From: Eledone cirrhosa
Lineage: Eukaryota
NCBI GenBank assembly: GCA_964016885.1
Contig: OZ024747.1
Coordinates: forward strand, 35,464,001-35,528,000
Direction of reading: 5' to 3'
DNA length: 64,000 bases
Part shown: positions 4,061 through 31,041 of the stretch, piece by piece
Numbering within the stretch: position 1 is the stretch's first letter
Layout of the letters: each line of letters opens with the position of its first letter
Notes under the pieces: model-generated
What the model saw: the letters and a program-made list of their open reading frames with translations, nothing else
Databases searched by the model: none
Told to the model about the DNA's origin: nothing
Program-made: the position numbers and the translations under genes

Positions 4061-4087
4061 TCTGACTTGATTGGTATCATTATTTTG

Positions 4088-4274
4088 TGGATTGGCAGTA
4101 TCGGTAGAGGGTCGGACGCCATGCTTTGACGTATAGAGTTACGGCCCTTGCCATTCTGAGTTCAAATCCCGCCGAGGTTAACTTTGCCTTTCATCCTTAC
4201 GGGGTCGATAAAATAAAGTACCAGTAATACACTGGGTAATTGCTGGCCTTGTGCCTAAAGTAGAAACAATTATT
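4088..4274 (+). mobile_element. tRNA-derived SINE S1 inserted into the PLE RT region
   Basis: A-box-like TGGCAGTATCGG and B-box GAGTTCAAATCCC. Duplication attattttg at 4079-4087 and 4269-4277. PLE coding sequence is continuous across the insertion when compared with the 54100 region. Confidence 0.9.
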
Positions 4275-6614
4275 TTGAATTCTTTAAATCGGAAAATTCC
4301 TCAACTTCGCGGTAGAATTTAGCGTGACGATTCCGTTTTTATTGTCTTAAACTGCAACTTAGTTAACCTTAATATTATTAAGAATAATATACTTGATCTA
4401 TTTAAGCACCATAACCTTAAAATTGAATTTGATAACAACGTCAAACTAGCTAACTTCCTAGATATATCCCTTAATATTGACACCGGCCTATATTACCCTT
4501 ACCATAAAGACAATGAGTATCTAATTTATGTTAATTATAAATCTAAGCACCCCACTAACGTGAAAAATGCTATAGTCAGCAATGTTGAAACAAAGAATCT
4601 CAAATCTATCCTCTAATAAAGTTATATTCGTCGCTAATGCCAATTATTATAACAATGCGCTTTCCAAAACCGGTTATCCTGATAAAATAAAATACAGTAA
4701 AGAAACCAATCATCGAAGGACTTATAGTAAAATAGTTAGTTATGAACATTCCAATAACTTAAATAAAAGACCTAGATACATAAATATGATTTGGTATAAT
4801 GCTCCTTTTTCTCTATCTATTCCTAGACTACTTTTTAGGACCTTAGATAAATGCTTCCCTCCTTCGCATATCTATAGTAAGATCTTTAACAAACATACAA
4901 TCAAATTCTCTTATTCTCCCACTTCCAACATCTCTAACATTATATCTAAACATAATAATAAAATATTAAATAATAAATTATAACCATCCAACACTGAACG
5001 TCATAATAATAGCAATAGTAAACCCGACGTCAATGTTAACTCTAGGCTAGATTCAGTAACTTTAAATACGACGTCAAACGTAACTTCGTCGAATGTTCAT
5101 AACACCAATCTAAATCAGGAAACTATAGTTCCTTTCGTAAATAACTTCTCCAATCCAATTCCTTCTACTAGGTCACTTGTTAATAATTCTGGTACTTTCT
5201 CTAATCGTAATTGTAATTGCCCTGTTAGAACTAAATATCCTCTTAATAACCAATGTCTTTATAAAAACCTAGTGCATGAATGTAAGCTTATAACTGGTAC
5301 TAATTCTTTTACCCATTTTGGTTCCACTTCCACATCCTTTAAAGCAAGATTTTATAACCACAATTCGTGTTTTAAATACCAACTTAAAAGAACTAACACG
5401 GCACTCTCAGAACTCATATGGTCCTTAAAAGACAAAAAAATATTAACTATAACATCTCTTGGAGGAAGGTTTGCAACGCCTTTCCTTACCGGAATTCTTC
5501 CCTATCCAGAACATGTAATCTCTGCCTAGCCGAGAAATTTACCATTATCTCTCATTTTAATTCTACAATAAATAGACGTACGGATTTATTTTCGCTCGGC
5601 TTGCATAATTCCCATAGAACTTGCCATAAAGTATACAGCTAATATCTCAATACATAATTAGTTTAAAATCTTCTTTTCTCAAACGCTTTTATATCTTTTA
5701 CAAATATACCCATCTTTCTACCTTATTTCAGTATATTATATTATACCATTTATAAATTCTATGTCGGTAGAGGTCCCCTATCTTTCTTCTTTTTTATCCT
5801 TTGTTTCTTTTTTCTTTTTTAATTTGTAATCTTTAATCTGTAACTTTTACTTCTCAATTACTTCTTAATTCATATTATTACTCACTATAGCATTTTTCTT
5901 TTTCCTTATATTCTTGGCTATATTTTTTTTAATATATACTAATATTACCATTAGTAAATTTTGTCAACATATATATTTTTTGACGTTATATACTTTTTCT
6001 ACCTTAAATTTTCTTCTTTCTTCTCTCCTTTCGTGCTCGTATTAAACCTATTATATACTTTTACATATTGCAATACATAAAAACAAACTTAAACCGTAAC
6101 TAATTCCTCTAAGTTCTTAATTAATTTAATCACTTCTTCATTAACCTTATCTCCTTAATATTTTTATTTTAATAATACATATCAATAAATTCTTTTTTCG
6201 CAGATATTATTAAACCCTTCAATATTTAAACCTTAAATAAATACTATTCTTAATTCCATTTTCTTTAATCATAAACATCACCATTCATAAACCTCATTAC
6301 CTTTTATTTCAAAAGCTTTTTAAATTATCTATTATCTTTCAACGGTTTGTTTTATATCTCTCTGTGACACAGTGTTTTCTCAGTTTTAAAGGCTATTTCT
6401 CTCTCTCTATCACTCATTTTTCCTCCTCTCCCATCTTTCCTTCTTATACTCCTCCCCCGTCATCCTTTATTTTATTTTCTTCCTCTTCCTTACCTTTTCC
6501 TACCCCCCTCCTTTTTTTCCCCAATCTCATATATCCATCTTACTTTATTTTTCATATGTTGATTTAACACTTCACTGCTCGCAAGTGTTTTTTAAGCTTC
6601 ATATCATGTCTCCC

Positions 6615-6680
6615 TATTTTATCTGTTGAGAACGTAAATATCATCCCATGATGATATTTGTTTTTGAAATGCGCATAATA
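6615..6680 (+). ncRNA. Type I hammerhead motif (degenerate) in the pseudo-LTR of PLE family A
   Basis: tattttat CTGTTGA gaacgt-aaatatcatc-ccat-gatgatattt-gttttt GAAA tgcgca TA ata. The copy at 54974-55013 supplies the full stem I partner ataaaata. Confidence 0.65.
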
Positions 6681-6711
6681 CATGGAACTCTTTTAACCAA
6701 TTTTTGATCTC

Positions 6712-7094: not shown

Positions 7095-7101
<7 letters not shown>
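6747..7101. mobile_element. Fold-back (inverted-repeat) PLE-terminus or retrozyme-like insert in (TA)n
   Basis: About 140-bp arms (6747-6888, 6895-7037) plus a 60-nt tail found on the right side only. Each arm carries an HHR motif. Confidence 0.8.
6819..6964. ncRNA. Two inverted copies of a minimal type I hammerhead with a U3-A8 core
   Basis: Consensus of the arms (6819-6854 minus, 6928-6964 plus): cctt TTGAAAA gcag-aagaa-ctgc GAAA ccgg TA aagg. Each copy has one lesion. Confidence 0.65.
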
Positions 7102-7141
<40 letters not shown>

Positions 7142-7322
7142 TAATTTAATATATCTACTAACATAAGCGCACAGATGTAAGCCAATGCCAGCAAATACAC
7201 AGGTTATGTCATAGTACCTAGGTGGTTCATTGCAGGAGGATGCAGAACAATAATATAAAAGACGTAAAATAAGAAAATTTAAAAAAAAAATAAAAAAAAT
7301 AACTTACTTCCTAAAGTTTTCA

Positions 7323-7402
7323 CTCCAACTAATTAGTTTCTGCAATGGGATAAAGACAGTTACGTAATGAACTGTTGAGAATTTCATTGCGTCATCAGGG
7401 AG
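7323..7402 (-). ncRNA. Type I hammerhead, family B
   Basis: ctcc CTGATGA c-gcaatg..cattgc-a GAAA ctaattag TT ggag. Confidence 0.8.
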
Positions 7403-7743
7403 GTCTGTTCTCAGCCAAGTCTCCAGGCAATGCGCGGACAATGGGGACTCATATAAAAATAATAATAATAATTCGGTAAATGGAACATTATCGGGGACTG
7501 GATTCCAAGTACTGAAAATCTCGCTGCCACTGGTCAAATGGCCGATTCTAAAGAATCAATCACGTGACACTGAGGCTAGTCGGTAGGAGTGGGATGGTAA
7601 GATGACAGACGCCTACTAACACACCAACAATTTAGTAGTGGTTTTGGCAGTCCCCGATAGCTGTTCCATTTACCGAATTATTATTATTTTTATATGCATC
7701 CCCAGTGTCCGCGCATTGCGTGGAGACTTGGCTGCCAACAGAC

Positions 7744-7823
7744 CTCCCTGATGACGCAATGAAATTCTCAACAGTTCATTACGTAACTGGCTTTATCCCA
7801 TTGCAGAAACTAACTAGTTGGAG
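7744..7823 (+). ncRNA. Type I hammerhead, family B (one stem III substitution)
   Basis: ctcc CTGATGA cgcaatg..cattgca GAAA ctaactag TT ggag. Confidence 0.75.
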
Positions 7824-7880
7824 TGAAAATTTTAGTAAGTTAATTTTTAAAAATTTGTTTTAAAATTTTCTTATTTTACG

Positions 7881-8113
<233 letters not shown>

Positions 8114-8116
8114 TGA

Positions 8117-8331
8117 AGGCGTGTGGCTGAGTGGTTAGAGAATTGGATTCGCAAGCGTCAGGTTGTGAGTTCAATTCCTGGACCAGGCGATGCGTTATGT
8201 CCTTGAGTAAGACACTTTATTTCACGTTGCTCCTTCTACCTGGAGTTGCGACCGATAGATAGTATTAGCAATTGGAAAGACCAACGGAAACATTGTTCCG
8301 TCGGTCCGATTTGACGAAAGTCGATCGTTTC

Positions 8332-8332
<1 letters not shown>
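8117..8332 (+). mobile_element. tRNA-derived SINE (family S2)
   Basis: A-box TGGCTGAGTGG, B-box GAGTTCAATTCC, followed by tgtccttgagtaagacact, a conserved SINE body motif. Ends in (TA)/(TG). Confidence 0.8.
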
Positions 8333-8397
<65 letters not shown>

Positions 8398-9029
8398 CGC
8401 ATGAGTATTAAAGGGAAATTAATGGGAAATTAGGCTTTCAATATATGAAGTAACAAATATTCGAGATTTTACCATATCTGCCAAATGGGTCTCCTTTCTG
8501 TATACACATAATTTAGTTTCATATATTTGGTATACTCATTATTTCTGTGGGAAGCGAATTAGTTTGCAACGCATAAGGTGACTCATTATATTAAATCTAT
8601 AAATTTTATATCTTTCTCCATTAAACTTGTAGTAGCAGGATAAATAATTTAAATTATTTAAACAAACTTTGCTTTCTCTGGCATCATGGAACTCAGCCAG
8701 AAGAGAAAAACAGTTAACTTTGTGATAATTACTTTGTCCATTTAGGAAATAATTTGGAAGAGAATGCTTTAATCAAGTACATTTTATCAACTATGTGAGA
8801 TAAATACCCAGATACATATTCTCAAATGTGAATTTGGCTGGGACTGAAGTCAGTAAAATAGTATCAAACGGTTTATGAAAATTAACTCTGTGATTAAGAA
8901 GAATGTTTAACAACCAGGTGATTTTTAGATTGATCACATTTTGTACGATAAACGTAATTTGATTTTAATTGAGAACCAACTAAATGCAAACATTTATATG
9001 CATGAAAACAAGTATATAGTCCACGAATG

Positions 9030-9178
9030 TAGGCAGAGATATTAGAATGTCGTATAGGTTGTTTCGCGGTATTCGTTTCGGCTCTCTCAGCTCTGAATTC
9101 AAATCTTGCCAAGGTCATCTTAGTCTTTCATCTATTTGAGATCATTATACAGAAAACATTACCAGCCATGTACTGCGG
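9030..9178 (+). mobile_element. Diverged tRNA-derived SINE related to S1
   Basis: ctctgaattcaaatcttgccaaggtcatcttagtctttcatc aligns with S1 ttctgagttcaaatcccgccgaggttaactttgcctttcatc. Confidence 0.65.
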
Positions 9179-9296
9179 TGGATTTTCTCTCTATACCCTT
9201 TTCTCATATTCATTCTCTCACCATCTCTACTTTACCGGAATAAATCAGTTGTATTGTATATATATATATATATACACACACATATATATATATATA

Positions 9297-9481
9297 TTGG
9301 TAAAAGGAAAAGAAAATGCTGACAAATTGTTCCCAGAGAAAAATAGTTTAATTAGGAATAAGTAAAAATTAGTAATAGTATTGGTTAGTATTCAGTTTTG
9401 GTTTTAAGATTTACCGGTTGCGCATTTCTAATGCATTTCAAAAATAATTTTGAGATAGAGCACCCGTGATGTTTGCTCTAA

Positions 9482-9486
<5 letters not shown>
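9297..9486 (-). mobile_element. Single arm of the HHR-like terminus family found at 19146-19610
   Basis: Colinear with 19147-19345, TA-flanked, and contains ttaccggttgcgcatttcta. Confidence 0.8.
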
Positions 9487-9576
<90 letters not shown>

Positions 9577-9622
9577 CGTAAAATAAGAAAATTATAAAAT
9601 TAACTTACTTACTAAAATATCA

Positions 9623-9702
9623 CTTCCAACTAATTAGTTTCTGGAATGGAATAAATATATTTTCCGAAGAAAACATGGAGAATCATTCCGTCGTCAGGGA
9701 AG
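9623..9702 (-). ncRNA. Type I hammerhead, family C
   Basis: cttcc CTGACGA c-ggaatg..cattcc-a GAAA ctaattag TT ggaag. Confidence 0.8.
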
Positions 9703-10302
9703 ACTATTCTCATCTAAGTATCCAGGCAAAGCGTGGAATCTAGAAACTTATTAAAAAATAATTCAGTGGATAGAAAATAGTAAAGCGTGGACTGAATTCC
9801 TAGCCATTGAGAAAATCACTGCCTCTGCGTCGGTGGCAAATTCAAAAAGAATCAATCACGTGACATCGAGGTCAATCAGTGGAAAGTGGTTTGCTAATAA
9901 GACAGCGTCCTGCCTGCTACCATAGCAGCAGTCATGGCCAATATTGCTCGACAAATAATTTGGAGATAATTATAAAGAATTAATATCTAGTAACATATAT
10001 ATACATACAGATGCATATCAATGCTAGCAAATATATAGGTTTTGTCTTATAACTTTGTGGTTCAATGCATGGGGTTGCAGAACAATAATATGAGAGACGT
10101 AAAATATTAGCAAACCACTTTCCACTGATTGACCTCGATGTCACGTGATTGATTCTTTTTGAATTTGCCACCGACGCAGAGGCAGTGATTTTCTCAATGG
10201 CTAGGAATTCAGTCCACGCTTTGCTATTTTCTATCCACTGAATTATTTTTTTAATAAGTTTCCAGAATCCACGCTTTGCCTGGATACTTAGATGAGAATA
10301 GT

Positions 10303-10382
10303 CTTCCCTGACGACGGAATGATTCTCTGTGTTTTCTTCGGAAAATATATTTATTCCATTCCAGAAACTAATTAGTTGGAAG
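10303..10382 (+). ncRNA. Type I hammerhead, family C
   Basis: cttcc CTGACGA cggaatg..cattcca GAAA ctaattag TT ggaag. Confidence 0.8.
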
Positions 10383-11161
10383 TGATATTTTAGTAAGTAA
10401 GTTAATTTTATAATATTCTTATTTTACGTCTCTCATATTATTGTTCTGCAACCCCATGCATTGAACCGCAAAGTTACTAAGACAAACCTATATATTTGCT
10501 AGCATTGATATGCATCTGTATGTATATATATGTCACTAGATATTAATTCTTTATATATATATATATATATATATATAAATACACATATAGAAAACTCTAT
10601 AGAACCATTCAGATAAATGTTGAATCATGAAATCGTGGAATTGCTCACATTTTAATATTCATTTCAATTTTAATATATATTTTAACACATACATATTCAC
10701 AGGGTTTACATGGGTTTCACAGACTCATAATTGCGAGAATGACCTAGGTAATTTTATACGTACTATCTTTGTTGCCGAAGTGTGTAGCTGGTTACTCCGA
10801 CATTAAACAAGGATTTATTAAATTAAGGGAGAGAAGAGAACCCAATCAATAAACTACCATGAATCCAGCACATATATGATTGATCGAATGCTAACAAACG
10901 CAAATAATGTTTGTACGTAACACATTGAAAACCTAATTAAAGTTTTTAATTTATGGTTTGCTTTTTGATATAATTAGGTAATGTAAACAACAGCCGATCT
11001 GCAACATTAACGATTTATACATTGAACAGAATTGAGAAAATGAATTTTAAAAAAATTGACTATGATGAACTGATATACACGGGAGTACCTAACTAGGTGT
11101 TACAGAAAGTAAGAGGGTCCGGAAAAAGAGGTGGCATATGTACTAAAAAAGCGTTACATTT

Positions 11162-11196
<35 letters not shown>

Positions 11197-12607
11197 ATTA
11201 CAAGGTATGAGGAAATAATAGACAAAATTACACCTATTTTTTCTTCAACGTCCCGCCTGCAGTTTCGCCGATCCGTGTGTAAAGTCTGCACTATAAAAAT
11301 GTATCATCGATGTGAGGCTAATACGTCTTATAAAGAGACTCCTCAGAAAAAGGACTGTTTCTTTCGTAGCAAGTGAGAATATATCGAAAGGCAGAGGTAG
11401 AATTTAATACATGATACAGTGTTCACTGTTGGGTAGTAAGGTGGAGAATGAGTGAATAACGTATTTGCTAGGAAAGCATTTCATACATCCCTGGGTTAAC
11501 TCGACCATATGGGAGTTTGGGACAATATAATAATGAAATATACACAAATATTCGCAATATATTTATATATACATTTACATTATAATCATTGCATATAAAT
11601 ATATTTCTTCACATTGTACGAATTTAGTATTTTCAATAAGCAGCTATTATTTGAATTATATCATATATTATATTTACCATATAACCGTTTTTCTTGTAAA
11701 ATGTGTAAACATTTTATCTCTGGCATTTATTCCCCTGGGCTTTATGTCTATTCACCAACAATACTTACCGTCTACTTTCATATGAAAACTAAAACTGTAT
11801 CTAACATTCAGTTATGATGTTTTATTTGTATGGCAATTTTATTTTTCCTTTTATAAATGGGCTGTTAAATCATATAAATTACTATAGACTGACAAGTAGC
11901 AGCCTATAAATTAATAAAGTTTGCAAATATAAAGATATATAACATTTCTAAACAGACACTCGTTGAAAATTAAAACTCGTATTAACGGTTAATATCCTGT
12001 AATAGTCACTTGCCATTCGATCCGTGGAAATTGTTTATATTATATTAAAATGCATAATTATATTACGAACGGGTTGAAGGTTATAGAGATAACCAAAGCA
12101 ACAGAATAACAGACTAAATGTATCAAATATTTCAATTTATTTCTTATGGTTTTCTAATGGTCTTCAACAAGTTTAGACAAATTTAACCTACCTTAGTAGA
12201 ATCTATGCTTAAGAGAAATGTTTTAGATATTCTATGGCAATGGATTGACGGAATCTGTGAAGCTTCAGGCAAAATGTCTTCCACTATTTAGCTCAACAAT
12301 TAACGACATAAGTACAAATCTCATCTTTGTCAACTTTACAATTAAGTCATCAATACAGCCTTGATCAAATCGGCACCTTTCGTATTCTGTGTCTATATAA
12401 TCATATATACTTCATCGAATTGCATTGGAATTTCTGAACCCCGGCATTTTCTAGAAGTGAGAGTGCGGCACAAGTGAGAAATAAAATATACTGCTGGCTA
12501 CATGTTATTTTGGCGTTTTTGTTTTCTGCCTAATACATTGACGGTAACTATATGTTGGTTTAGTAAAAATGAATGAAGGAATATGAAATCCCATTTTGCT
12601 AAATATT

Positions 12608-12796
12608 AATTGTTTCTACGTTTGGCACAAGGCCAGAAATTACCCAGTGTATTACTGGTACTTTATTTTATCGACCCCGTAAGGATGAAAGGCAAAGTTA
12701 ACCTCGGCGGGATTTGAACTCAGAATGGCAAGGGCCGTAACTCTATGCGTCAAAGCATGGCGTCCGACCCTCTACCGATACTGCCAATCCACCGCC
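12608..12796 (-). mobile_element. Full-length tRNA-derived SINE S1
   Basis: Family match, with a TSD of about 20 bp (ccattttgctaaatattaat at 12591-12610 and 12796-12815). Confidence 0.92.
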
Positions 12797-13622: not shown

Positions 13623-13880
13623 CGGCGATGAATTAGTTTTGCGAGGTTTTTTATATGAAATCGTGTGTCGAAACAAATATTGTTATACTTGGGGAGGGTC
13701 ATATTTGTGTAATATTGCCAGAATTGATAACAGAACACACTCACTGTTTGGTTGGTTTTCGCTTCTCGCTGTCTTTTATATCGGTAATCTAACTTACTCG
13801 GTCCTCAATGTTGCCATTGACTGACCGACGGTCAAAAATAATACAAATACAATATAGACACAAACACATATATATAGTTT

Positions 13881-13922
13881 ATCATAAATCTTTCGTTGCA
13901 CATCTGCAACATCGTCAGTGGT
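13881..13922 (-). ncRNA. Type I hammerhead motif in the Nematis-like pseudo-LTR
   Basis: acca CTGACGA t gttgca-gatg-tgcaac GAAA gatt TA tgat; one stem I mismatch. Confidence 0.6.
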
Positions 13923-14161
13923 GTTATATTTTCCTCGTGTTGTGTTGTATATCTACGCCATTTTTATTCAGTCTGTCTATATATTTATTTATTTATTTGC
14001 TTGTTTGTTTATTTTATTTTGTCTTCTTTGCGCATGCGTTTGCGTGTGTGTATAGTGTTATGTTTGCTGTGTGATGGGTGACTAGTGTGTGTTTATGTGC
14101 TTGTTGTTATTGTGCTTGTGTATGTATTTATTTATTTATTTATCTTATTTTATTTACTTAT

Positions 14162-15073
14162 TTATACTTCTCTTAGGTCAGTGTTGTTTGTTTGGGTGTT
14201 GTTGTTATTCAATTCATTCTTTCTGTTTAGCTTTGGTCTTCTAAATTCTATTTCACTGGCCTCTCTGATTTGGGTATCTGCTGGGTCATTTCTATGTTTA
14301 GATATTATTCTAATTTCTATGTTGTCTATGTTACCGTCATGTTGTTGTCTAGCATGTTCGTATAGTACTGACCCGTATTTTCGTCCTTTTAGTTCCCCCC
14401 AGTGTTGGTCTATCCTTTCACCCATGCTACGAGCTGTCTCACCTATGTATGTTGTTGTCATGTTTCTGCAAGTACCCTCTGTACATCTTATGCTATAGAC
14501 TACGTTTCTAGGTTTACAGTTTATCCGGGGGTTCACCTTACATATGATACATTTCCTATTGGTACAGTGGTTTTTCTTAAAAGGGTAGGTTTTGCTGGTC
14601 AGGGATTTTATGGTGGTTCCTGACTTTTTTACCACCTTTATTTTTAAGTGGGTCTTTCTCAGGGCCTTTCTACACTGGTTAGCTAATTTCCCTCCAGGGG
14701 TGGCGTCCACACACATGACACTCTGGTATCTCTTGTTGTCGTACCATGAGGTGGCTTTCCCTATCTTATGTCTAGCCCTATCTAAGCTATTCTTTGATTT
14801 GCTCCTGTATAATGGGCAAATTCCTTTCATGTCCTGTTCTATGAGGTTCTTATACATTTCCATGGCTCCTTCGCATACTCTGACTCTGTCTCTTTGGTTG
14901 TAGCCAGAGAACTGCATGCGGTTGATGAAGTGTTGGATGTGTCTTTCCATTTCTGTTGGGTCGCACATGCGGGACACATTCTTCATCACTCGTACCAAAT
15001 CTGCGATCAGAATATTAAACTTAGCACTACTGGACATTGCTGAGTTTTTGAGTATCAGGTATTTGGAGGCCAT
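14162..15073 (-). CDS. PLE C-terminal fragment with GIY-YIG endonuclease (open frame but truncated, not a host gene)
   Basis: VVY-x-YIG, conserved R, H, E and N residues of PLE GIY-YIG. Confidence 0.8.
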   Translation of the reverse strand: MASKYLILKNSAMSSSAKFNILIADLVRVMKNVSRMCDPTEMERHIQHFINRMQFSGYNQRDRVRVCEGAMEMYKNLIEQDMKGICPLYRSKSKNSLDRARHKIGKATSWYDNKRYQSVMCVDATPGGKLANQCRKALRKTHLKIKVVKKSGTTIKSLTSKTYPFKKNHCTNRKCIICKVNPRINCKPRNVVYSIRCTEGTCRNMTTTYIGETARSMGERIDQHWGELKGRKYGSVLYEHARQQHDGNIDNIEIRIISKHRNDPADTQIREASEIEFRRPKLNRKNELNNNNTQTNNTDLREV

Positions 15074-15489
15074 GGGTTTAGCATAGTGTGAGTGGGGGGA
15101 ACTAAAAGGACGAAAAAACGGGTCAGTACTATACGAACATGGTATTTAGATACATAGGACCACTTCATGGCACAGGCCGTTTTTTCTTTGGGGAGTGGTC
15201 AATTAGCCAGAGTGCTTTTTGAAATAAATAAATAAGTAAATAAATGTATAAATGAATAAATGAATAAATAAAAAATAAATAAATAAAAAAGTAATTCAAC
15301 AAATATATAGTAGGGAAATTTTTTAGGTGGGTTGGTAATAGAAATTAAACATTTAACAAGACCGAATCAAAGCACAGACTGGGGTGAGTGGTCAAGTTAA
15401 CATACAAGCACAGGTGGACAGAGTGTTTTTGTAGAATGGAAAGAATAAAATATATTTACATACTCACAACCACTTACAAAAACACTTAC

Positions 15490-16309: not shown

Positions 16310-18303
16310 CTATAATATGAGGTAGTGGGACGAATTTTAAATTTTAAATTTTAAATTTAAGCTGGGCCTGATAGAGGATTAAAATAATTAATCTCACTAT
16401 TAAGTTATTAACATTATCATCAAGTAATTAATTACTATTTATTATTTATTATCTATTACTTATTATTTACCATTCACTATTCGTTACCTATCCTTTATCC
16501 TTTATCTATTCATTACCTAATCATTCACTCATAAATTAATAAATAAATGAATGAGTTAACTAACAAACAAACAAACAAACAGATAAACAAATAAACCAGT
16601 AAATAAGTAAATAAATAAACAAATAAATAAATAAATAGATAAATTAATAAATAAGTAAATAAAGTAACTAAATAAATAAATAAATAAAATAAATAAATAA
16701 ATAAATATACAGTTAAATAGATAAATAAATCATGAACGTGTGCGTGCAGCAGTTCATAACTGCACGTATGCAAACATGAGCAGGTATATACGTGAATTTG
16801 TGTGTGCGGCCACGGAACTTTACTCAGAGGCATACAACACAATATATAAGACCTGGAGGGGAGGAAAGAAGGTAATAATGAGAGATAGAGGGGAGGAAAG
16901 AGGGTAATAATGAGAGATAGAGGGACGGAAATGGGATGGGGGGCGGGGTGGGGTGGTGATATTGGGGGGGGGTCAGTCGGGGGCCGGGGGGGGTCTGTAG
17001 TTTTTGTAATTTGCATAGTTCTTGTGCATGCAATTAGGGGAGTGTTCCGATATCTTTTTGAGGAGAGGGCCTTTGGCGAATAGAATCTCATAGCTCTCGG
17101 AGATACAGAGGTCACAGCAATTATGGCCTCCCGTGTATGTTCGCGCTCTCTGGAGTAGTCTCCATTGGGTCTTGAAGGGGATTGAGTTCCTTTTTAGGTG
17201 CCAGATGTGGGCGGCGAGTGTAGTCTGGTTAGATTTGTCTGGGCGCCGGAACGAATGTGTGTGGGCGTACCAGCGAGTCTTAAAACTATTAGAAGTCATC
17301 CCGATGTACGAGTTTCTTTTTTCATCGGGGCCTGAGAGTACATCGCATATATACACGAGATCTTTTTTTAGACAGTTGTTGTTGAGAGGGCAGGTCGTCT
17401 TATCAGGGCAATTGCAGTTACAATCGGTTGCTGGATGGGCTTCGGAAAAAGTAGACTTATTTAGCTTCTTGATGTTGTTGTTGGCTAAATTTCTAGCTAG
17501 ATTAGGTGTGGTAGAGTAAGAGAGTCTAATAGTATTCTTATTAAGGATAGTATAGTACCTATGTTGGGTGGGGAAGTGTTTTTGTAAGAGAGTGAAGAAA
17601 ATTTTAGCTACAGGTGTTGAAACTTCTCGGTTGAAGGGGTGTTGTACCAGCTAATGTGCCTTCGCCTATTCTTCCTGGGTGGGCGTGGGGCTATAGTTAG
17701 GTAGGTGATCTTATCTCTAAAGCCGCTGCGGGCCAGGGCCTCGTTGTAATAGGGGGCTGCTGCTCTAAAGATATCTTCATTGGCGGCGAGGCTAGATATC
17801 CCAATGAAGACACTTTTTACTAGGTTGTCTAATATATTTTTGGGGTGGTTAGAATTAACGTCTATATATCTAAGGGATTCATTAGGTTTGTGGTACGGGT
17901 AGTAAAGGGAAGTTTCTAAGTCGATGGTAACGTCTAGGAAGTTAGCTTTAGTTAAGTTCGAATCTAAGGTAATCCTAAGGCCTAAGTTTTTAAAGAAGGT
18001 GTAAAGGTTTTTCCTGAACCCATCCGTGGTCCTGGGGTTGATTTTGTGGAGGGCAAAGAGGCCGTCATCTCGGTAGAGACCGCCGGAGATGCCTGTGAAG
18101 AGGGTCTTCAACCTGTGGAGGATGAACAGACCCACAAGGTCACTAATCTCAGTTGAGTCGCTAGCACCCATGCTAACGTCGAAGGGGGTCTCAGATTTTG
18201 TGTTGATCCAGTGGGATCTGTCATAGTAAAGAAAAGTCTTACGTGCATGGAGGATCACTTCCTGCTCGGCTTCAGTAATTGTGGTTAAGTTCCTGGCGAA
18301 GTT
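16310..18303 (-). mobile_element. Penelope-like element (Hydra-like), 5'-truncated and frameshifted
   Basis: MGASDSTEISDLVGLFIL, GLYRDDGL, NFLDV, PYHKPN, SNHP, CNCPDKTTCPLNNNCL, YIC..SYIGMTSNSFKTRWYAH, CDLCISE. The 3' boundary is uncertain. Confidence 0.9.
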
Positions 18304-18328
18304 AATATATATATATATATATATATAT

Positions 18329-19077
18329 AGTGAGTTGGGATTTGGCCGCAGTATCGCTATTAGCTTTCTCGATAATGTATTTATATATTTACTCTTGGAG
18401 CAACGGATATGAACTTCCCGATATATGGTGTGACTCTCTTTGTTTTATTTTTATATATGAATTATTGATTGTTTCTTGTATCTCATTCTGTTATTTTCCC
18501 CGAGAAAATATCTATGTGTGTCATCAAATTATGTACACATATGGTTATTTTTTCAAATTCCAATTGAGTTCTAGCACGTGACTTGAATTCTTTCTAGAAT
18601 TCATTGTCCTGCGCATGTATTGTTTTTTTGGCGGTAATTTTCCTTCTCTTTTTTTTGAGACAGTATGAGAATTTGTTTGGAACTGCTGGGCAAGCAACCT
18701 AACAGCTACCTCAAGCACTGATTGTGATTATCGCTAAATATTGATGTTGATTTGACTATCATTATTAATGTTATTGGGCACCTAGTGAAGAATTATAAGA
18801 GCCCACTTGTATAAGTATCTGTTGATTTTATACAAGCTTCTACATAAATTGGTGTAATTTCACCTAACTTGTAGGAATATTATAATGAAACGAGACGTCC
18901 GTCTGGGAAGAGATATATTTGATATATCTCATATGAAATAATACAGCCAATTTTCCACACAATACAATTAGTTAGCACCCCGAACGTTTAATTAGGATTA
19001 TACTCACTTATTTCCTAATGTTTGTTGAGTGAGTTGTGATTTGGCCGGAGTATCGCTATTAGCTTTTTCCGATAATG

Positions 19078-19087: not shown

Positions 19088-19145
<58 letters not shown>

Positions 19146-19149
<4 letters not shown>

Positions 19150-19610
19150 TAAACGGAATAGAAAATGCTGACAAATTGTTCACAGTTGAAAAATGGTTTA
19201 ATTAGGAATAAAAGAGTATTAGTGATTGTATGGGTTAGTATTCAGTTGTGGTTTTAAGTTTTTAAGTTTTTACCGGTTGCGCATTTCTAAATGCTTTTCA
19301 AAAATAATTTTGAGATAGAGTGTCCGTGCTGTTTGCTCTGATCTGATCAGAGCAAACAGATCAGAGCAAACAGATCAGAGCAAACAGCACGGACACTCTA
19401 TCTCAAAATTATTTTTGAAAAGCATTTAGAAATGCGCAACCGGTAAAAACTTAAAAACTTAAAACCACAACTGAATACTAACCCATACAATCACTAATAC
19501 TCTTTTATTCCTAATTAAACCATTTTTCAACTGTGAACAATTTGTCAGCATTTTCTATTCCGTTTACCAATATATAATAACTTGTGTGTTACACCTCTAT
19601 TCTTTTAACT
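19146..19610. mobile_element. Fold-back PLE-terminus-like insert in (TA)n
   Basis: Near-perfect arms of about 195 bp around three copies of gatcagagcaaaca; about 35-nt tail on the right only. Confidence 0.85.
19412..19448 (+). ncRNA. Hammerhead-like motif with U3-A8 and GCAA in place of GAAA (mirror copy at 19268-19304 minus)
   Basis: ttt TTGAAAA gcatt-taga-aatgc GCAA ccgg TA aaa. Confidence 0.45.
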
Positions 19611-19631: not shown

Positions 19632-20300
19632 TTTATTTAGTGACGAAACATAAGTCAATTGCATGAACTCATAATCCTATATTTACTGCTATATATATTT
19701 AGATTGAATGGCTGTGACCTCATCAGGCAGTTAGTCAGTTCTTAGATATGCCAGCTCTGTGTTTATAGTGTTGATGATATCAGAGCCTTGGGACATATGA
19801 GCTTGTTAGGAATAAATTAATGTTGTCAGCAGCAATAGTCTTGATTCTCATTGGTCAGTTTGTAGATGGTAGTAGGGTTGGTATTTGACCTCAAAGAGGC
19901 AGGTGGTTTTGTAAAGTTCAAACCGTCAGGCAAGATGACAATATTTCCATATGACTGATTTTCACAAAAGGCATTTCTGGTCAGATATATATTCAATTAA
20001 GGTTAATAGTATGAATAGATACTAGAGGTCGTTCTTAAATTGAGGAATTTATGTGGAGTGGTGCTACTGAAATTTATGGTTGGAGTAGAAAATTTACAAA
20101 TAAAAAGACTTATGTAGGTTGGCTTGCACTACACTCACACCCACCTCCACATCACACACACACGTCCACACATACAAAATGTGGGGTGGTAATACTTAAT
20201 ATAATGGTTAGAGTCCAATACTTAGATAGTTTAGAAAATTTAGAAATAAAAGGTTTATGCTGGTTGACTTGTACATACACTCACACCTACAACCTCAGAC
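19632..20300 (-). mobile_element. PLE 3' terminal region with a deleted HHR (family shared with 38305-38475, related to 28556-29075)
   Basis: 19640-19797 is the reverse complement of 38305-38470; actgc CTGATGA ggtcacagcc.. with part of stem II and GAAA lost. The upstream boundary is uncertain. Confidence 0.65.
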
Positions 20301-20735: not shown

Positions 20736-23700
20736 AATTTCAATAATATTAAGACACCCTAATGGGTGAAAATTTTGGAAGCCCATAATTTTAGTATTGG
20801 TGCCTCTATTATTACGGATTTTCTGTTAATTAAACGTAAATCAACAAAACAAGCACCCCTCTTTTTGCATGTAGATTATTTGCATAACTGGATTTTCTTT
20901 TCCGTGGCATAAGGGATGTTTGAAAAAATAAAATAAAGGGAAAATTTTAAAAAGTAGAGGCATTCACTAATATTTTTTGTTATCATAATTCTAGTGATGT
21001 TTTGCCATAAATTAGGCAAATTTTACTATAAAAGAGAGGTGCTTTTTTTGGTTGATTTGACTAATTTAGAGATTTTATCTGTGGCAAACCACCACTAGAA
21101 TTATGTCAACAAAAGTATTAGTTAATGCCTCTACTTTTTTAACATTTTCCCTTTACTTTATTATCTTTTCTCAGACATCCCTTATGACACGGAAAGGAAA
21201 ATCCAGTTATGCAAATAATCCACATGCAAAAAAAAGAGGCAAACAGAGTCTCGGCAAAATGAAAGTAGTTATGCAAGGTAGAACGACTTTCTAGCCAAAG
21301 ACAGAGGTAAACAGAGTCTCGGCAAAATGAAACCTTTGGTGAGCACCAAGAAAGACAGGAACAAGATAGATTTCGCCATATAGTTACAAAAAGAAATGGC
21401 TCTGAAGAAGAAAGACAACAGCGTTTGATTGTTAATAGAAACATCTATCAAAATTAAGACGTGAGATTCAAAATGCTAAACGTTCTGCATTACTGTATGA
21501 CAAAAATAACCCATGTAACAAGGCTGCAATTGGAGAAATGACCAAACTTTGTCAGTGTGGTCCTAAACAGTTTACTGGAGAATCACCAGGAATTTGCTGC
21601 GGAAATGGAAAAGTTACACTGGATCAATTTCCACCTTTCCACAGCTATTATAAAAACTGTTCAATGGGGAAAGTCAATTTAGCAAATACTTTTTGTCAAT
21701 ACTCAGGGAGTACAAATCTCAGTTTGCCATAACCAGCTTTGGTCACACATATGCATCTGTAATAATTCAAGGTCAAATTTACCATCAACTTGGGTCATTG
21801 ATGCCTCCTGAAGATAGAATAGCAATATACATTCAAGTTTACTTTCTGGACACTTTGGAAGATCAAATGAGGGCAAGAGGAGACCATCAAAACTTGAATA
21901 CTGATATATTGGAGAGAATTACAGCCTGGTTAAATGAACATAATCATTATGTGGGGGAGCTAAAGACTGTGCTAAAGCAAGTGCGTCAAGGGAACATATA
22001 TGACAAGAAAATTGTAATTCGGGAAGATAAACCTGCACAGGGAGAGCATGCTCGGCGTTTTAATGCACGAACGGGAGCTGAAGTTCCAATTTAATGTCAA
22101 ATGAGCAAAAAGGGAATATAGATATTGTTCTTCAGTTGAAAAAAGGCGGATTGAGGAGAATTTCAGAGCTACATCGATCCTATGATTCTTTGATGTATCC
22201 ATTGTTTTTTTCCATATGGAACAGACGGCTACCACATATATTTGCAAGGGATAAATGGTCGGTAAGTCACACACTTGCAGTTTTAGTCTTTCCATATTAC
22301 ATGCAGAGAAGGGAACTACCTCTTGCTTGGAAGGCGACTCTTCCTACAATTCTTGGTGGATGCATACTGTAAAATAGAAATTGAAAGACTGAAGTTTTTG
22401 AGAAGAGAACAGCAAAGAATGCGTGCTGAAAATTATTCAGATGTACGTGATAGTCTACTTGCTACTGATGGAAATCCAAACCAAGTTGATCGTCGCATTG
22501 TGCTTCCAGCGACCTATACTGGTGGTCACCAATACATTCACGAAAAAAGGTCAGATGCGATGGCCTTTGTGTGACACTACGGAAGAGCAAATTACTTTAT
22601 CACTATGACATGTAATCCACGTTGGCCTGAAATTTGGTTCCCGTAAAAGAGAGTCATGACCGGCCTGATATTGTTGCGATAGTCCTCAGATTAAAAAGGA
22701 AAATGTTTATGGAAGATATGAAGAAGGGAATATTTGGTACTTTGCAAACATGGCTGTACATCATTGAGTACCAGAAGAGAGGTTTACCAAATGCGCACTT
22801 TCTTTTCTGGAGCACAAAATTAAAGCCGAAAAATATGATTTGGCAATTTCTGCAGAAATTCCTAACAAAGTGAAAGATAGAGAACTCCATGATCTTGTCA
22901 TGAAACACATGATCCATGGCCCCATGTGGATCTCCATGTATGGTCGACAGAAAATATTCCAAACACATCTCCAAAGTTCTCCTAGAAGACAGCTAGAAGA
23001 TGGTGGTCATATTGGCAAATCAACATGAGACAACATGGACGTCAGGTTGAGCAATAAATCACCAACCAATGGGCCGTGCCTTACAATGCATATTTGTTGC
23101 GACAATTCAACTGGCATATCAATGTTAAATCTGCCCATCAATTCATTCAATCAAGTATTGCATCAAATACATAGGGGTTGAATCAAGCTGTTTTTGACTT
23201 ACAAAATGCTGCACAAGTCAACACTCCAGAGCCACAGGTGACTGATGAAATAATCCAATACCAAAACATAAGATATGTGTCATCACCAGAAGCAGCATGG
23301 CCTATTCTTGAGCATCCTACACATGCGTATTTCCCACCAGTTGTTGGCAGTTCGGGTTGAACAATATAAAAGATTGACAGAGGATCAAAAGAGTGCTTAT
23401 ACAGCAATTTTAGAGATGGTGAATGGTAAAAGAGAAGATGATAAAAACATTATGTTTCTTGATGCACCTGGAGGAACAGGTAAGACTTCTTTGCAAACTT
23501 AATTCTTGCAAACATGAGGTCAGAAGGCAAGGTTTTCCTGGCAACGGCATCAAGTGGTATTGCAGCAACATGTTGGAAGGAGGACATACTTTGCATAGCA
23601 CTTTCAAAGTACCACTGGACACATACAGAATGGATAAGCCTACATGTTCAGTTACTCGAAACTCTAACATGGCGAAAGTTATACGGGAAACAAAAGCAAT

Positions 23701-25108
23701 GATTGTTGATGAAGCCCCATGGCTCATAAGACTGTTTTCGATGCTATTGCTCGAACTTTACAGGACATCACAGGTGTCAAGAGGACAATGGGTGGTATTA
23801 AAACTCTACTATCAAAGGACTTCCGTCAAAAGTTGCCCGTTGTCAAAAATGGAACAAGAGCAAACATTGTTGAAGCAAGTTTAAAGGAATCCTACCTTTG
23901 TAGATACGTATCTGTGAAGAAGCTGACAACAAATATGAGGGTTCATATGACTGGCGATTCAGATTCAGCAAACTTTTCGAACCTTCATACAATTGGAGAT
24001 GGTCAGCTCCCTTATGTAGAAGTATCTGATACAATTTTAGTTCCTGAAGAACTTAGAGAATGTGTTGAGAATCTAGAGGATTTGAAGGCAAAAGTGTATG
24101 CAGATTTAAGCTTGAATGGAAAACATCCACACTGGCTTGCTGAGCGAGCGATTATTTCTCCACTAAATGCCAATGTCAAGTTGAATAAATGACTAATGAG
24201 TGAATTTCCAGTGCAGGAAAAAGTGTACAAATCTATTGACACTATAACAAATGATAATGAAGCTGTACAGTATCCTACAGAGTTCTTGAATTCAATTGAG
24301 CTTTCTGGAATGCCTCCCCATCTTCTGAATGTTTAAAGTTGGTTGTCCGATCATGATTTTGAGATCATTGGACCCACCCCAAACAATAAATGGAACAAGA
24401 TGTGTTGTAACAAGATTGCATGAGAACTTGATTGAAGCAACCATTATATTCAGGGCTTACATAGGTCAAGCTCTTCTCATTCCGAGGATTCCACGTATAC
24501 CATGTGATAGCGAGTGCCTTTTACATTTAAGAGGCTGCAGTTCCCAGTGAGTCCATGCTTTGCCATGATAATCAATAAGAATCAAGGTCAAACTTTCAAA
24601 GCAATTGGTATAGATTTGACAAACCCATGTTTCAGTCATGGCATGTTTATGTGGCTGTTTCAAGGACTGGAACTTCAACAAATCTCTACATTTTTGCCAA
24701 TCAAAGAAATACAAGAAATGTTGTTTACCCTGAAGTTCTTCATTAGGACAAAGTAAGAAATATATTTTTATGTATTTATTGTTAAAAAATAAATAATGAA
24801 ATTTTTAATTTCTAATTTGGAAATAATGCTTTAAACAAAAATGAAATGATCAAGATTGGAATTGATATTTAAAAGAAAATTATTTACAAGAAACAAAATA
24901 AGAATAAGATTTAATAATGTAATTTTGATTTGACATATTACAAAAAAGAATGTTTTACAATTGTTCATGCATTACATTTTACATTGAATAATATTAAAAT
25001 GCAGAGTTTTCCTCCATAAATTATGACACTGATTTAAAACCAATCATCATTTTCTTATAAAGAAAAAAAAATGTTTGAAACGCAGCAACGCGCGGGAAAT
25101 TCGGCCAG
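20736..25108 (+). mobile_element. Helitron, degenerate RepHel (Zn finger, HUH Rep, PIF1 helicase)
   Basis: GESPGICCGNGKV, QGQIYHQLGSL, YFITMTCNPRWPE, IEYQKRGLPNAH, SIKYCIKY, RYVSSPEAAW, DAPGGTGKT, IVDEAP, DFRQKLPV, RLQFPVSPCFAMIINKNQGQT. 3' hairpin cgcagcaacgcgcgg then CCAG|T at 25105-25108. Many frameshifts. Confidence 0.95.
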
Positions 25109-25344: not shown

Positions 25345-28300
25345 TTATCTATAAAAGGTAGATTTTTGTTGTTTGTATGTATGTTTCAATTTTATACATT
25401 TACACAATTCCAAAAATATTGAATGAATAATTAAGCAGAATGTTTACAAATATTCTAACTAGGATCATGGGCGAACTTATTGGGTAAAAAATGCCACAGT
25501 TACGGAAAAATTGATTTATTTCAACAATCGATGATTTCTCCTCTCTCATATGATATACGTTTCCTATATCTACTCCCTTCATCACCTCCCCTTAAAATTG
25601 CTACCTTCTCTTATAAGTGTTTGTGAAAAAGAGAAACATTGAAAACAAACATATACACACATATATGTGGGTGAATATACACACATATATGTTGGTATGG
25701 TTACGATTGACGTCATAGAAACAGGAACGCGGGAATTTCAATCAATAAACGCATTTGTTTTAGAAATAACAATAGCATATAATGATAAAGAGGGATATAA
25801 TGATAAAGAGGGAGTGAGAAACAAACAGATACACTAAAAGACGGATATATGTGTGTGTGTTTGTATTAGCGCGTTCAAACTCCATTTCGAAGCTGACTTT
25901 CATTTACTAAACTGTAAGTTTTTCAATCAGCCTTACACTTTCAAAATATATCTTTCTGTATAAGTAACTTTAACCCTTTATTTTCGACATAAAAATACAC
26001 ACATACATACAAATACCTGTAAATCTTTTTTTGGGGGTCTTTCTTATCAATCTTTTTACATTCAATTATCAGCCTTATACTTTCAAAGTCAATTTTTATG
26101 TTGAAGTAACTTTCACCCTTTATTTTTCGATACCCATTTACTTACTAACATTTGTATCACAACAACAATAACAATATTCATAAACAGACAGTAGACTTTC
26201 AAAGTCATTTTTTCTGTAGAAGTAACTTTCACCCTTTCTTTTGAAGATAAAATACCACCTAAAAAGAAAAGTCGCCTCAGTCGACATACTGCGTCAGCAG
26301 TGGCGCAAAAGGCGACTATAGCAAACGAGTCCTCTGAGGAAAATGCGCTTCAAGACTTTCACAGACAGCCTTACGTTCAGCAGAATGTCGAGCCGCTGAA
26401 AGTTTCCAACAGCGCACCGCACGCCTAGCCAAAATGGCTTCATACCAGGCTTCTTCCAGGGCTTCAGAGAGCCGTGAACAAAGGTCGAAGCGCCTGGCTA
26501 GAAACGATGCGACTAATGCTGCTTCCATGTCTTTGGAACGTTTAAAGCAACGGACGGCTCGCCTTCCTACGAACGCTGCGGCTATGACTACTTCCATGGC
26601 TTCTGAAGATGCAGACGGGCGGTCCATTAGCATTGCAAATGTTGCTTCTGCTATTGCTGCCAGACCTTCCCACCAACCACACGACCAATGTTCTACGTTC
26701 AAGCGTAACAGTCGACGGCGAGAAGCTGGACGCGGTGTGACGAGCCACAACAGCCCTTACTGGCACCTACGGGCTTTCAAGTATGAGCAAAACGTTAATT
26801 ACTCGATGCGCTCTGACATAAATATAGGCGAGATGATCTTCAATTGCCAATTCTACAATGCTACAAAGTGGGCTGGGGAGCCACCTGCAATGTGCTGCTT
26901 AAACGGTAAGGTCAACTTGCCCCCTCTTCCGGAACCGCATGAGCCTTTGAAGGAACTACTGACTGGTTATACCTCAATAAAAAACGCTCCTGGGGGTACC
27001 GGAAAAACTTTTGTAACAAATTTGATTCTCGCTAAGATTCGTCAGGAGAAAAAAGTTGCGTTGTCCGTTGCATCGTCCGGGATCGCTGCTACTTTGCTGC
27101 CGGGAGTCAGGATAGCACATTCAACATTTAAACTCCCTTTGGATTTAGTAAAAACTGAGACACCAACATGCAATATCAGCAAGAGTTCACACAAAGCTCT
27201 GGTTCTCAAAAGATGTTGCCTCATTGCACGATGGCAAACAACGGTGCCCTTGAGGCATTGGACAGGGACCGGAAAGACATTAGGGATTCTACGGCTCCTA
27301 TGGGTGGCGTAACCCTTCTGCTATCAGGGGATTTTCGGAAAACGCTGCCTGTCATCCCCAAATGGACAAGAGCTGATGAAGTGCGTGCCTGTCTTAAGTC
27401 GTCCATGTTGTGGCTCCAGGTGAATATTCGTGCTCATTTGCATGGTGACAACATGTCTGCAGCGCAGAACATTTTAGCGCTTGGTGAGGGCACGATCCCT
27501 GCGGATGACAAGGGCGGCATAGCAATCGACACCCTGTGCAACATTATGAGAAGCCCTTCTGACCTTTGGGAAGCAGTTTTTCCTAATGTCTCATCTAACT
27601 TTAAAAACCTCGATTGGCTCAGCGAAAGAGCCATCCTTGCTCCGAAAAATACCATGGTTAATTTTATTAACGAGCAGCTGATTGAGAAGATTCCCGGTAA
27701 AGAGCACATCTTCAAATCAGACCCCGACGATATCGTTAATTATCCGGTTGAGTTATTAAATCTCCTTGAGCCTCCAGGGCTCCCACGTCACATTAATAAG
27801 CTTAGGGTTGGCCTGTCCCATTATGCTAATAAGGAACTTGCGTCCACAAAAGCAGTGCAACGGTACACGCATGGTCGTCAAGTCACTGACACCCACTTGA
27901 TTGAGGCCACCATTGTAACGGGGTGCGGAAGAGGGGAGAATGTTTTCATTCCAAGGATGAACCTTTTCCCCTCGGCGTCAGATATCCCGTTCGATTTCCG
28001 GCGATCCCAATTCCCGGTGAGACTATGTTTTGCCATGTCCATTAACAAGTCACAAGGGCAAACATTGTCAGTGGCGGGCATCCATTTGGGGGAGCCATGC
28101 TTCTCCCATGGACAACTTTATGTTGCCAGTTCCCGCGCAGGGATCAGGAATGGACTTTTTGCTTACTCTCCTCAAGGGATGACACGCAATATCGTCTACA
28201 AAGAGGTGCTATAGATGTTGGTGCAGGTGTTGGAGCTATGCCGTCTGGAACACAATTTCCTGGTAGGGTATCCCATGGCGGACAGATCTGACACCCAGCG

Positions 28301-28528: not shown

Positions 28529-28561
<33 letters not shown>

Positions 28562-28607
28562 AGATAAAATAAATAAGTCAAATGTTTAAAATTTAGCTTC
28601 GTTTATT

Positions 28608-28662
28608 ACTGCTATATATATTTCGGTGACAGCCATCTTTGGCTGTGACCTCTTCAGGCAGT
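28608..28662 (-). ncRNA. Type I hammerhead
   Basis: actgc CTGAAGA ggtcacagcc-aaagat-ggctgtcacc GAAA tatata TA gcagt. Confidence 0.85.
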
Positions 28663-28882
28663 CCGAATTAGTGTGGTATAGACAAGTACATATATTGTTG
28701 AGATGTATAACCTTGTCAATACTCTGATAGGTCCAGTTCCTGGTTGGGTTGTTATTTCACTGAGGAAGTGGAATCATTTCCTCAGTGAAATAACATCCTA
28801 ACCAGGTACTGGGCATATCAAAGTATTGACAAGGTTATACACCTCAACAACATATGTACTTGTCTATACCACACTAATTCGG

Positions 28883-28937
28883 ACTGCCTGAAGAGGTCAC
28901 CGCCAAAGATGGCTGTCACCGAAATATATATAGCAGT
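28883..28937 (+). ncRNA. Type I hammerhead
   Basis: actgc CTGAAGA ggtcaccgcc-aaagat-ggctgtcacc GAAA tatata TA gcagt. Confidence 0.85.

Positions 28938-29075: not shown

Positions 29076-29144
<69 letters not shown>

Positions 29145-31002: not shown

Positions 31003-31041
<39 letters not shown>

Follow-up and report, generated by a model that had tools for sequence, protein, structure and literature searches.

Head-to-head hammerhead repeats in (TA)n microsatellites of Eledone cirrhosa: compensated stems, a predicted pseudoknot and a probable Penelope-dependent retrozyme

Layout of the family C insertion and related hammerheads

The window, by which we mean the whole 64-kb stretch of DNA that was analysed, was AT-rich (22-46% GC per 2-kb bin) and contained many (TA)n and (TG)n microsatellites. 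Positions 9571-10553 were found to be a head-to-head insertion of a non-coding repeat, family C, with a unit of 521 nt, inside a (TA)n microsatellite. The two arms point outwards, and each carries one type I hammerhead and runs into the (TA)n repeat. The locus contained the following features.

9486 to 9570, (TA)n target microsatellite, left flank
9571 to 10107, minus strand, left arm: one full 521-nt family C unit plus 16 nt; its sense 3' end, the "short" end, abuts (TA)n
9623 to 9702, minus strand, left-arm type I hammerhead; predicted scissile bond between 9628 (U17) and 9627 (G1.1)
10108 to 10553, plus strand, right arm: 5'-truncated family C unit, inverted relative to the left arm; its sense 3' end, the "long" end, abuts (TA)n
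10141 to 10157, plus strand, block tcacgtgattgattc, a 17-nt run identical in families B and C, possibly promoter-like
10294 to 10299, plus strand, GAGAAU, 5' flank strand of the predicted pseudoknot
10303 to 10382, plus strand, right-arm type I hammerhead; predicted cut after U17 at 10377
10303 to 10307 and 10378 to 10382, plus strand, stem I
10308 to 10314, plus strand, CUGACGA core
10315, plus strand, extra C
10316 to 10321 and 10357 to 10362, plus strand, helix IIa
10322 to 10327, plus strand, AUUCUC, predicted pseudoknot partner and 5' strand of the helix II internal loop
10328 to 10349, plus strand, distal helix IIb of 9 bp closed by a UUCG loop; four double changes relative to family B
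10363, plus strand, extra A
10364 to 10367, plus strand, GAAA
10368 to 10375, plus strand, palindrome
10435 to 10553, plus strand, 119-nt "tail" between the two fixed 3' ends, with a small hairpin at 10508-10523
10554 to 10589, (TA)n target microsatellite, right flank

The two arms were identical in 320 of 327 and 131 of 137 aligned columns; the insertion is therefore not brand new. The longest reading frame in the unit had 27 codons, and no coding remnant was present. A read-through transcript of the locus could form about 330 long-range base pairs on folding back, and such duplexes could, speculatively, feed RNA editing or silencing. Just left of the family C site, at 9298-9485, lies a related copy of a perfect 206-nt inverted repeat with a 25-nt spacer (19140-19576).

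Families B and D contributed further hammerhead-bearing insertions to the window.

7142 to 7885, family B insertion 1 (B7), head-to-head; hammerheads at 7402-7323 (minus strand) and 7744-7823 (plus strand)
35874 to 37072, family B insertion 2 (B36), head-to-head with a partial tandem; hammerheads at 36031-35950 (minus strand), 36241-36318 (plus strand) and 36798-36879 (plus strand)
42521 to 44553, family D insertion, head-to-head in (TA)n; three hammerheads with a GUA site, two of them tandem on the minus strand; period 665

The tandem B36 copy at 36241-36318 (plus strand) was found to be without the 5' strand of stem I. Blastn revealed no similarity of family D to B or C; its hammerheads have a helix IIa, a 6x7 loop, a helix IIb and a 6-nt palindrome; an A flanks the stem II base on either side, and U-A stands at 10.1-11.1, where B and C have G10.1-C11.1. 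Two consecutive complete hammerheads, the "active" criterion of Li et al., were present only in D. The family C locus has one complete hammerhead per strand, so it would not release a monomer by double cleavage and is most likely a dead-end copy.

The type I hammerhead core was found with all its parts, namely CUGANGA, GAAA, A15.1-U16.1, an NUH site and three stems with the ends of the motif in stem I, and the B, C and D hammerheads each had one extra nucleotide on either side of the stem II base. The original prediction had listed several motifs as kept; we found CUGANGA, UU, the C after A9 and the A before GAAA in all seven B and C copies, but ctaattag in only six, as the 7744 copy reads ctaactag. 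What had been called a C-A mismatch at the base of stem II is better taken as the Penelope-type extra nucleotide lying between 9 and 10.1, followed by a normal G10.1-C11.1 pair, together with an extra A before GAAA.

A relaxed hammerhead scan gave nine matches in the window compared with 0, 0, 0, 1 and 0 in five shuffles. Rfam returned no match at the gathering threshold across the 64 kb, and in 7100-10700 none of the 13 matches at E<=10 belonged to a hammerhead family; the long helix II is the likely cause. A nested GAAA-palindrome-UU arrangement in loop II of family C was considered as a further hammerhead and rejected, as it is without stem I. Motif scans elsewhere returned chance matches throughout: 0 and 4 stretches without stems in viral sequences, three without stems or similarity in metagenomes, and 0 in prokaryote genomes.

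Stem compensation, helix IIb and the predicted pseudoknot

To follow the changes between families, the B and C units were compared; they were 76% identical without gaps and 68% identical over all 575 columns. The stems read cttcc/ggaag and ggaatg/cattcc in C, and (a)ctcc/ggag(t) and gcaatg/cattgc in B. Different unit periods and a shared junction had been claimed for the two families, and both were recovered: the period was 521 in C and 562-564 in B, and tatctccaaat, cgagcaa and tcacgtgattgattc were common to both. The sequence around the motifs had been described as diverged, but divergence is not the whole picture: seven identical runs of 10-19 nt were spread across the unit, and only one of them (18 nt) lay in the hammerhead core, with six outside it.

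In an alignment of six full B and C copies, five of them distinct (alignment A2), the claim of paired changes in both stems held. Stems I, IIa and III paired in 65 of 65 cells and two of 13 pairs had changed on both sides, with slid controls pairing in 20-46%; the shuffle control of this alignment ignores relatedness. In a neutral simulation with the B/C substitution matrix, both stems stayed intact in 472 of 200,000 trials (0.24%), and both stayed intact with a double change in each in 33 of 200,000 (0.017%; 1.7e-4). The compensation in stems I and IIa amounts to one B-C comparison with two events, and the stem I difference reads better as one inserted U-A pair than as substitutions. A covariance model built from the alignment recovered only the seven B and C copies, with two D copies at E values of 2-2.5.

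Four public DNA runs were mapped to the left arm at 80% likeness and gave 2009, 70, 27 and 6012 records. The outer A-U pair of stem I, lost in the 9571-10553 copy, is restored by the family variant 9703 A>T, which was found in 381 of 617 reads of run X16. Two other variants in X16, 9688 C>T in 200 of 626 reads and 9683 T>G in 233 of 621, would each break a pair unless the partner changes too, and partner changes were not among the 40 listed of 169 variant rows. Position N7, the one free position of the core, differs between the families (U/C), while the 13 constrained positions are unchanged (chance 0.03). The absence of listed variants from 25 core columns was not significant (0.15) and is subject to mapping bias, and other blocks of the unit were conserved to the same degree as the hammerhead core. 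Consensus folds outside the hammerhead had unfavourable covariation terms (+0.68 for the tail, +2.56 upstream). Within the tail, only the inner hairpin (10508-10523) was compensated, with two double changes relative to B, and the outer pairs break in C.

A stronger pattern was found in helix IIb, which sits in loop II with conserved letters anchoring both of its sides and with the UUCG loop in C. Of the 16 letters of IIb, 10 differ when B36 is set against the right arm of C; four pairs are double-changed, two become G-U and none of the eight is broken. This pattern occurred in two of 300,000 neutral trials, and in 85 of 300,000 at a doubled rate; the helix was picked after inspection, and template switching in the hairpin could contribute to its changes. 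The left arm of C breaks one IIb pair, which the X16 majority mends (9677 G>A in 356 of 613 reads, 9674 C>T in 511 of 613), and the B7 copies (7142..7885) break two and three of the eight pairs. One loose end in run X5, read by eye with four adjoining letters assumed to match, suggests a third version of IIb.

We also found that the six letters directly 5' of stem I complement the 5' strand of the internal loop that separates IIa from IIb. Among the six full B and C copies, the complement extends over 6 bp in four, 5 bp in one and 3 bp in one, where it is broken. In this position two of three family D copies likewise have a 6-bp complement, made of other letters, and the third has a broken one. 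Only 1.4% of control pairs reached 6 bp. Six other hammerhead-like motifs gave complements of 2-3 bp, and the feature was absent from families A and E, the 41779 motif and the Penelope flank motif. Covariation of this pairing is contributed solely by D, because B and C differ in none of its letters. The 5' flank of stem I and the internal loop of helix II are thus predicted to form a pseudoknot; the same letters could instead pair as a nested, inactive hairpin. The stems had been put forward as the best internal evidence for function; helix IIb and the 6-bp flank-loop complement kept in family D are stronger evidence of selection on the structure.

The paired changes might also be mutational, made by template switching in DNA or cDNA hairpins with no selection on RNA required. 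Local A-T-rich hairpins are of the kind perfected by quasi-palindrome correction, and IIb is such a local hairpin, with a 4-7 nt loop and A-T-rich in C; the helices were, moreover, chosen after inspection. However, the strands of stem I and IIa are 35-75 nt apart, wobble-compatible single changes occur in IIb, and the architecture recurs in the dissimilar family D, and we consider this origin extremely unlikely. Selection on RNA structure in the B and C hammerheads, as had been proposed, is supported by the sequence comparison, to which IIb and the flank-loop complement add; the proposal that these motifs are functional does not extend to activity of the present copies. As far as sequence can tell, the stem compensation shows past selection on the ancestral source elements of the family, not cleavage by the 9571-10553 copies.

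Computed folding was less favourable to the monomer. With the pseudoknot left out, the strict active monomer fold made up 0.7-2.8% of the computed ensemble, A14-U17 paired at 0.10-0.56, and whole-motif z-scores were weak (-0.6 to -2.4). The 10- and 12-nt palindromes gave duplex energies of -9.0 and -10.8 kcal/mol, compared with +1.5 for the hairpin. Given the low share of the active monomer and these dimer energies, help from a dimer, the pseudoknot or a protein is to be expected.

Insertion anatomy, Penelope-like frames and joints at the predicted cut

The window contained five broken Penelope-like reading frames, whose assignment rests on motifs and Atlas look-alikes.

4576 to 5529, broken Penelope-like reading frame
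14162 to 15145, broken Penelope-like reading frame
16973 to 18444, broken Penelope-like reading frame
32245 to 33967, broken Penelope-like reading frame
52864 to 55042, minus strand, broken Penelope-like RT and GIY-YIG frames with DKT and CxCX5C; candidate type of the mobilising partner

CxCX5C ahead of the endonuclease was found in three window frames and DKT in one; both are marks of the Hydra clade, all families of which are described as inserting into (TA)n (Craig et al. 2021, 10.1101/2021.04.23.441226). The Atlas look-alikes of two frames fell into eukaryotic RT-like and GIY-YIG-like clusters, and Pfam gave nothing useful in eight ORF fragments. Four broken Hydra-clade-like Penelope elements could be outlined (4576-6710, 16973-18444, 32245-35035 and 52864-55043). 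The Penelope flank at 6617-6710 bears a degenerate hammerhead-like motif (6617-6700), whose hairpin loop is long and whose palindrome has 6 nt. A flank of this type, truncated and inverted, recurs at 54974-55043, and related motifs lie at 41775-41829 and 51769-51868. The GIY-YIG frame at 14162-15145 (minus strand) belongs to another Penelope clade and is followed by a hammerhead-like core at 13880-13930 (minus strand) without a clear cleavage site; a similar core lies at about 52620-52650 (minus strand).

All five insertions of families A, B, C and D were head-to-head, with both sense 3' ends on TA or TC repeats, and all five had one short and one long 3' end, 89-119 nt apart (coin toss 0.03). 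In an inverted duplicate, the place that matches the B36 site is empty and consists of plain microsatellite. As reported for Penelope elements, inverted 5'-truncated copies with a tail at one end are the signature of the group (Craig et al. 2021, 10.1101/2021.04.23.441226; Goubert et al.), and the anole PAc protein is described as nicking AT-rich DNA and extending both strands, with two start sites setting the tail (Frangieh et al. 2024, PMC11167929). Within the window, B and C had no sequence homology to any Penelope flank or ORF, and the B, C and D units, having no RT and GIY-YIG frame, are not autonomous Penelope-like elements. The inverted arm, the one-end tail, the TA targets and the broken Hydra-clade ORFs in the window argue for a non-autonomous, Penelope-dependent retrozyme.

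We therefore consider that B, C and D are probably non-autonomous retrozymes: their RNA would self-cleave at GUU, and a Hydra-clade Penelope-like retrotransposon would copy it into DNA. Tandem source copies would be transcribed, and the hammerhead would fold with helices IIa and IIb and the internal loop between them; the 5' flank of stem I would pair with this loop, so that the pseudoknot would hold stems I and II side by side, and the palindrome may pair two copies as a dimer. A cut after U17 would yield a unit-length RNA, possibly circular. The Penelope protein would then nick both (TA)n strands, and reverse transcription would start at two fixed sites on the RNA, which are separated by about 120 nt and each serve one target strand, to produce two cDNAs that meet head-to-head. 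Single inserted copies such as 9571-10553 would then decay. The RNA structure would be selected because it serves the spread of the element, and the uniform anatomy of one short and one long end would be a natural read-out of Penelope priming.

The same units could be stranded pLTR fragments of full Penelope-like elements, left by 5' truncation and not independent. Most Penelope-type hammerheads do lie in truncated copies, often as opposite-strand pairs 100-700 bp apart (PMC4209133), and the family C locus, with one complete hammerhead per strand, would give no monomer by double cleavage. The tail, however, runs into the start of its own non-coding unit (periods 521, 562 and 665), contigs of X1 and X4 also contained the tandem joint from the tail into the start of the same unit (10091->9571), and the units are free of coding remnants; we judge this origin very improbable.

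The mapped reads also contained a joint, 9627->9708, that bears on retrozyme cleavage. It removes 80 letters, and the retained 3' part begins at G1.1, the first letter past the predicted scissile bond; the joint has no shared letters, and the letters between its sides are not known. It was supported by one X1 contig of depth 114, with 42 letters on its short side, and by six X16 reads from four starts, and was thus present in two studies, with two further reads that fit; joints called at 80% likeness in repeats are prone to artefacts. A strand-switch joint at 9629 was found in three reads. The chance of an exact match to the scissile bond was 0.033, and that of two joints within 2 nt was 0.012, based on 18 internal joint ends, counted by hand, over 540 positions. 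The joint at the predicted scissile bond is an indirect sign of cleavage in vivo, and it would be explained most simply by ligation of a cleaved RNA end or by the use of such an end in a template jump. Read ends also piled up at 9632 in X16; this pile was set aside, as it reflects clipping of related families in a DNA library. Some family C copies elsewhere are without the whole hammerhead (9627->9708) at above single-copy depth, and such ribozyme-less derivatives may still spread.

Alternatively, selection could have kept the fold as a signal by which the Penelope protein binds or packages the RNA, with self-cleavage slow, late or vestigial and with GUU and the extra A tolerated. Several observations are in line with this possibility: the active fold takes a small share (0.7-2.8%) of the computed ensemble, and other unit blocks are conserved like the core. 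The PAc hammerhead is reported to need protein for cleavage, its catalytic mutants leave insertion in vitro unchanged, and no RNA reads end at the hammerhead site (Frangieh et al. 2024, PMC11167929). Penelope-type motifs are often poorly active in vitro (PMC4209133), and cleavage was reported in one of nine retrozyme dimers (Li et al. 2026, 10.64898/2026.07.22.740005). In contrast, the catalytic core positions are all kept while N7 varies, and a joint starts exactly at the predicted scissile bond; we regard a role as binding or packaging signal alone as unlikely.

Hammerheads of Penelope-like elements are poor cutters alone and were dispensable in the one in vitro system. A very high-copy family with compensated stems, a predicted tertiary contact and breakpoints at the scissile bond would make their role testable from genome data and one simple assay.

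Comparison with known hammerheads and retrozymes

The conserved GUU had been called unusual. GUU is cleaved more slowly than GUC, and no numeric GUU cleavage rate was found in the literature consulted; GUC and GUA are given as the fastest triplets in a review. However, a count by eye in Fig. S3 of Cervera and De la Pena (2014, PMC4209133) gave, for position 17 of 56 hammerheads, C in 25, U in 24, A in six and G in one; GUU occurs in 15 of the 56, both Lottia rows included, and all three mollusc rows have U. An extra A before GAAA occurs in one of the 56, the Cotesia element by PDF row order, together with GUU, and a C after A9 is the usual extra nucleotide of Penelope-type hammerheads (PMC4209133). 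These counts place GUU and the supposed C-A mismatch within the known range, and GUU is present too in an unrelated minimal hammerhead of the window (30388-30423). A U-U at the base of stem II is likewise described as already known.

Compared with the Penelope-type hammerheads of that survey (PMC4209133), the present motifs were generally similar: they are type I, have a helix I of 4-5 bp, an extra nucleotide between 9 and 10.1, G10.1-C11.1 (in B and C), a palindromic helix III and the frequent U17, and they occur in families with compensatory changes and as opposite-strand pairs. There were also clear differences. Loop 2 has 3-9 nt in the survey, whereas here it has 35-38 nt and contains a second helix as well as an internal loop; the extra A before GAAA, present there in one of 56, was found here in 10 of 10 B, C and D copies; and the flank-loop pseudoknot is predicted here, in a unit without an ORF. 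The distinctive features are therefore the extended helix II, the predicted pseudoknot and the joint at the cut, and GUU is no ground for surprise. Side pseudoknots between stem I and stem II are reported elsewhere as 4-6 bp pairings that replace loop-loop contacts and are needed for fast cleavage (Perreault et al. 2011, PMC3088659); here the motif belongs to a Penelope-type repeat, and the predicted partner differs in being an internal loop within the extended helix II.

Retrozymes have been proposed to be non-autonomous Penelope derivatives (Li et al. 2026; Cervera and De la Pena 2020, PMC7229834; Weinberg review). Metazoan non-LTR retrozymes, as described in these sources, share with the present repeats short, AT-rich non-coding units, one type I hammerhead, tandem joints and a proposed Penelope mobilisation (PMC7229834; 10.64898/2026.07.22.740005). 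The units here are 521-665 nt long, compared with 150-450 nt (PMC7229834), and lie inside the reported 51-972 range (10.64898/2026.07.22.740005). Unlike those retrozymes, the present repeats have Penelope-type rather than canonical hammerheads and are dispersed as head-to-head (TA)n insertions (PMC7229834; 10.64898/2026.07.22.740005). With Hydra-clade elements and the Poseidon element PAc, the repeats share insertion into (TA)n, an inverted 5'-truncated copy, a one-end tail, two start sites and a hammerhead near the 3' end. Unlike them, as far as they are described, B, C and D have no RT or endonuclease, and the tail is 89-119 nt compared with 30-40.

A bolder reading, which we put forward tentatively and think doubtful, is that B, C and D would be an undescribed class of Penelope-type hammerhead in which the hairpin-extended helix II and the pseudoknot make a fast monomeric ribozyme despite GUU. 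They would then be very abundant circular retrozymes of 520-670 nt, inserted by a Hydra-clade Penelope protein through obligatory two-site priming, and the DNA joints at the cut site would be fossils of cleavage in vivo, which were not found for the one Penelope system tested biochemically. Such motifs would be under-counted, because they escape Rfam and short-loop descriptors. If the pseudoknot and the joint fail, what is left is an ordinary new retrozyme family. The available part of the Octopus vulgaris repeat paper makes no mention of a ribozyme. In the literature on octopus hammerheads, on Penelope hammerheads and pseudoknots and on non-autonomous inverted pLTRs, the architecture was not described, although an earlier description is possible. 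A 2017 study by Lunse et al. is said to treat Penelope hammerhead variants, and features called distinctive here may be described there.

Several further repeats were observed in the window. Family A forms a head-to-head hammerhead insertion at 28557-29076 with a shorter helix II, an AUA site and an 89-nt tail, and has the 3'-end motif TCTTATTTTA in common with B and C. Single copies related to it lie at 38369-38424 and 19638-19798, one of them with stem II deleted. The motif at 30388-30423 is a minimal Penelope-type hammerhead with an extra A after A9, G-C, a 2-nt palindrome and GUU; it lies within a 190-nt repeat ending in CA/TA repeats, of which a second copy (60795-60988) has a mutated core. 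A large inverted duplication (30551-32248 and 35077-38141, 91-99%) surrounds a Penelope ORF and 141-nt tandem repeats; B36 lies in one arm only, and the duplication may have been produced by an element or by faulty assembly. Another repeat, about 190 nt long and SINE-like in size, is dispersed over the window in at least eight copies that are 69-98% alike, as follows.

886 to 1062, dispersed repeat of about 190 nt
4087 to 4275, same repeat
12607 to 12793, same repeat
38700 to 38781, same repeat
48354 to 48559, same repeat
55207 to 55409, same repeat
59088 to 59281, same repeat
60259 to 60463, same repeat

Three further stretches (21654-24192, 26338-28214 and 62227-63522) are, judging by motif, presumably fragments of Helitron-like Rep/helicase frames.
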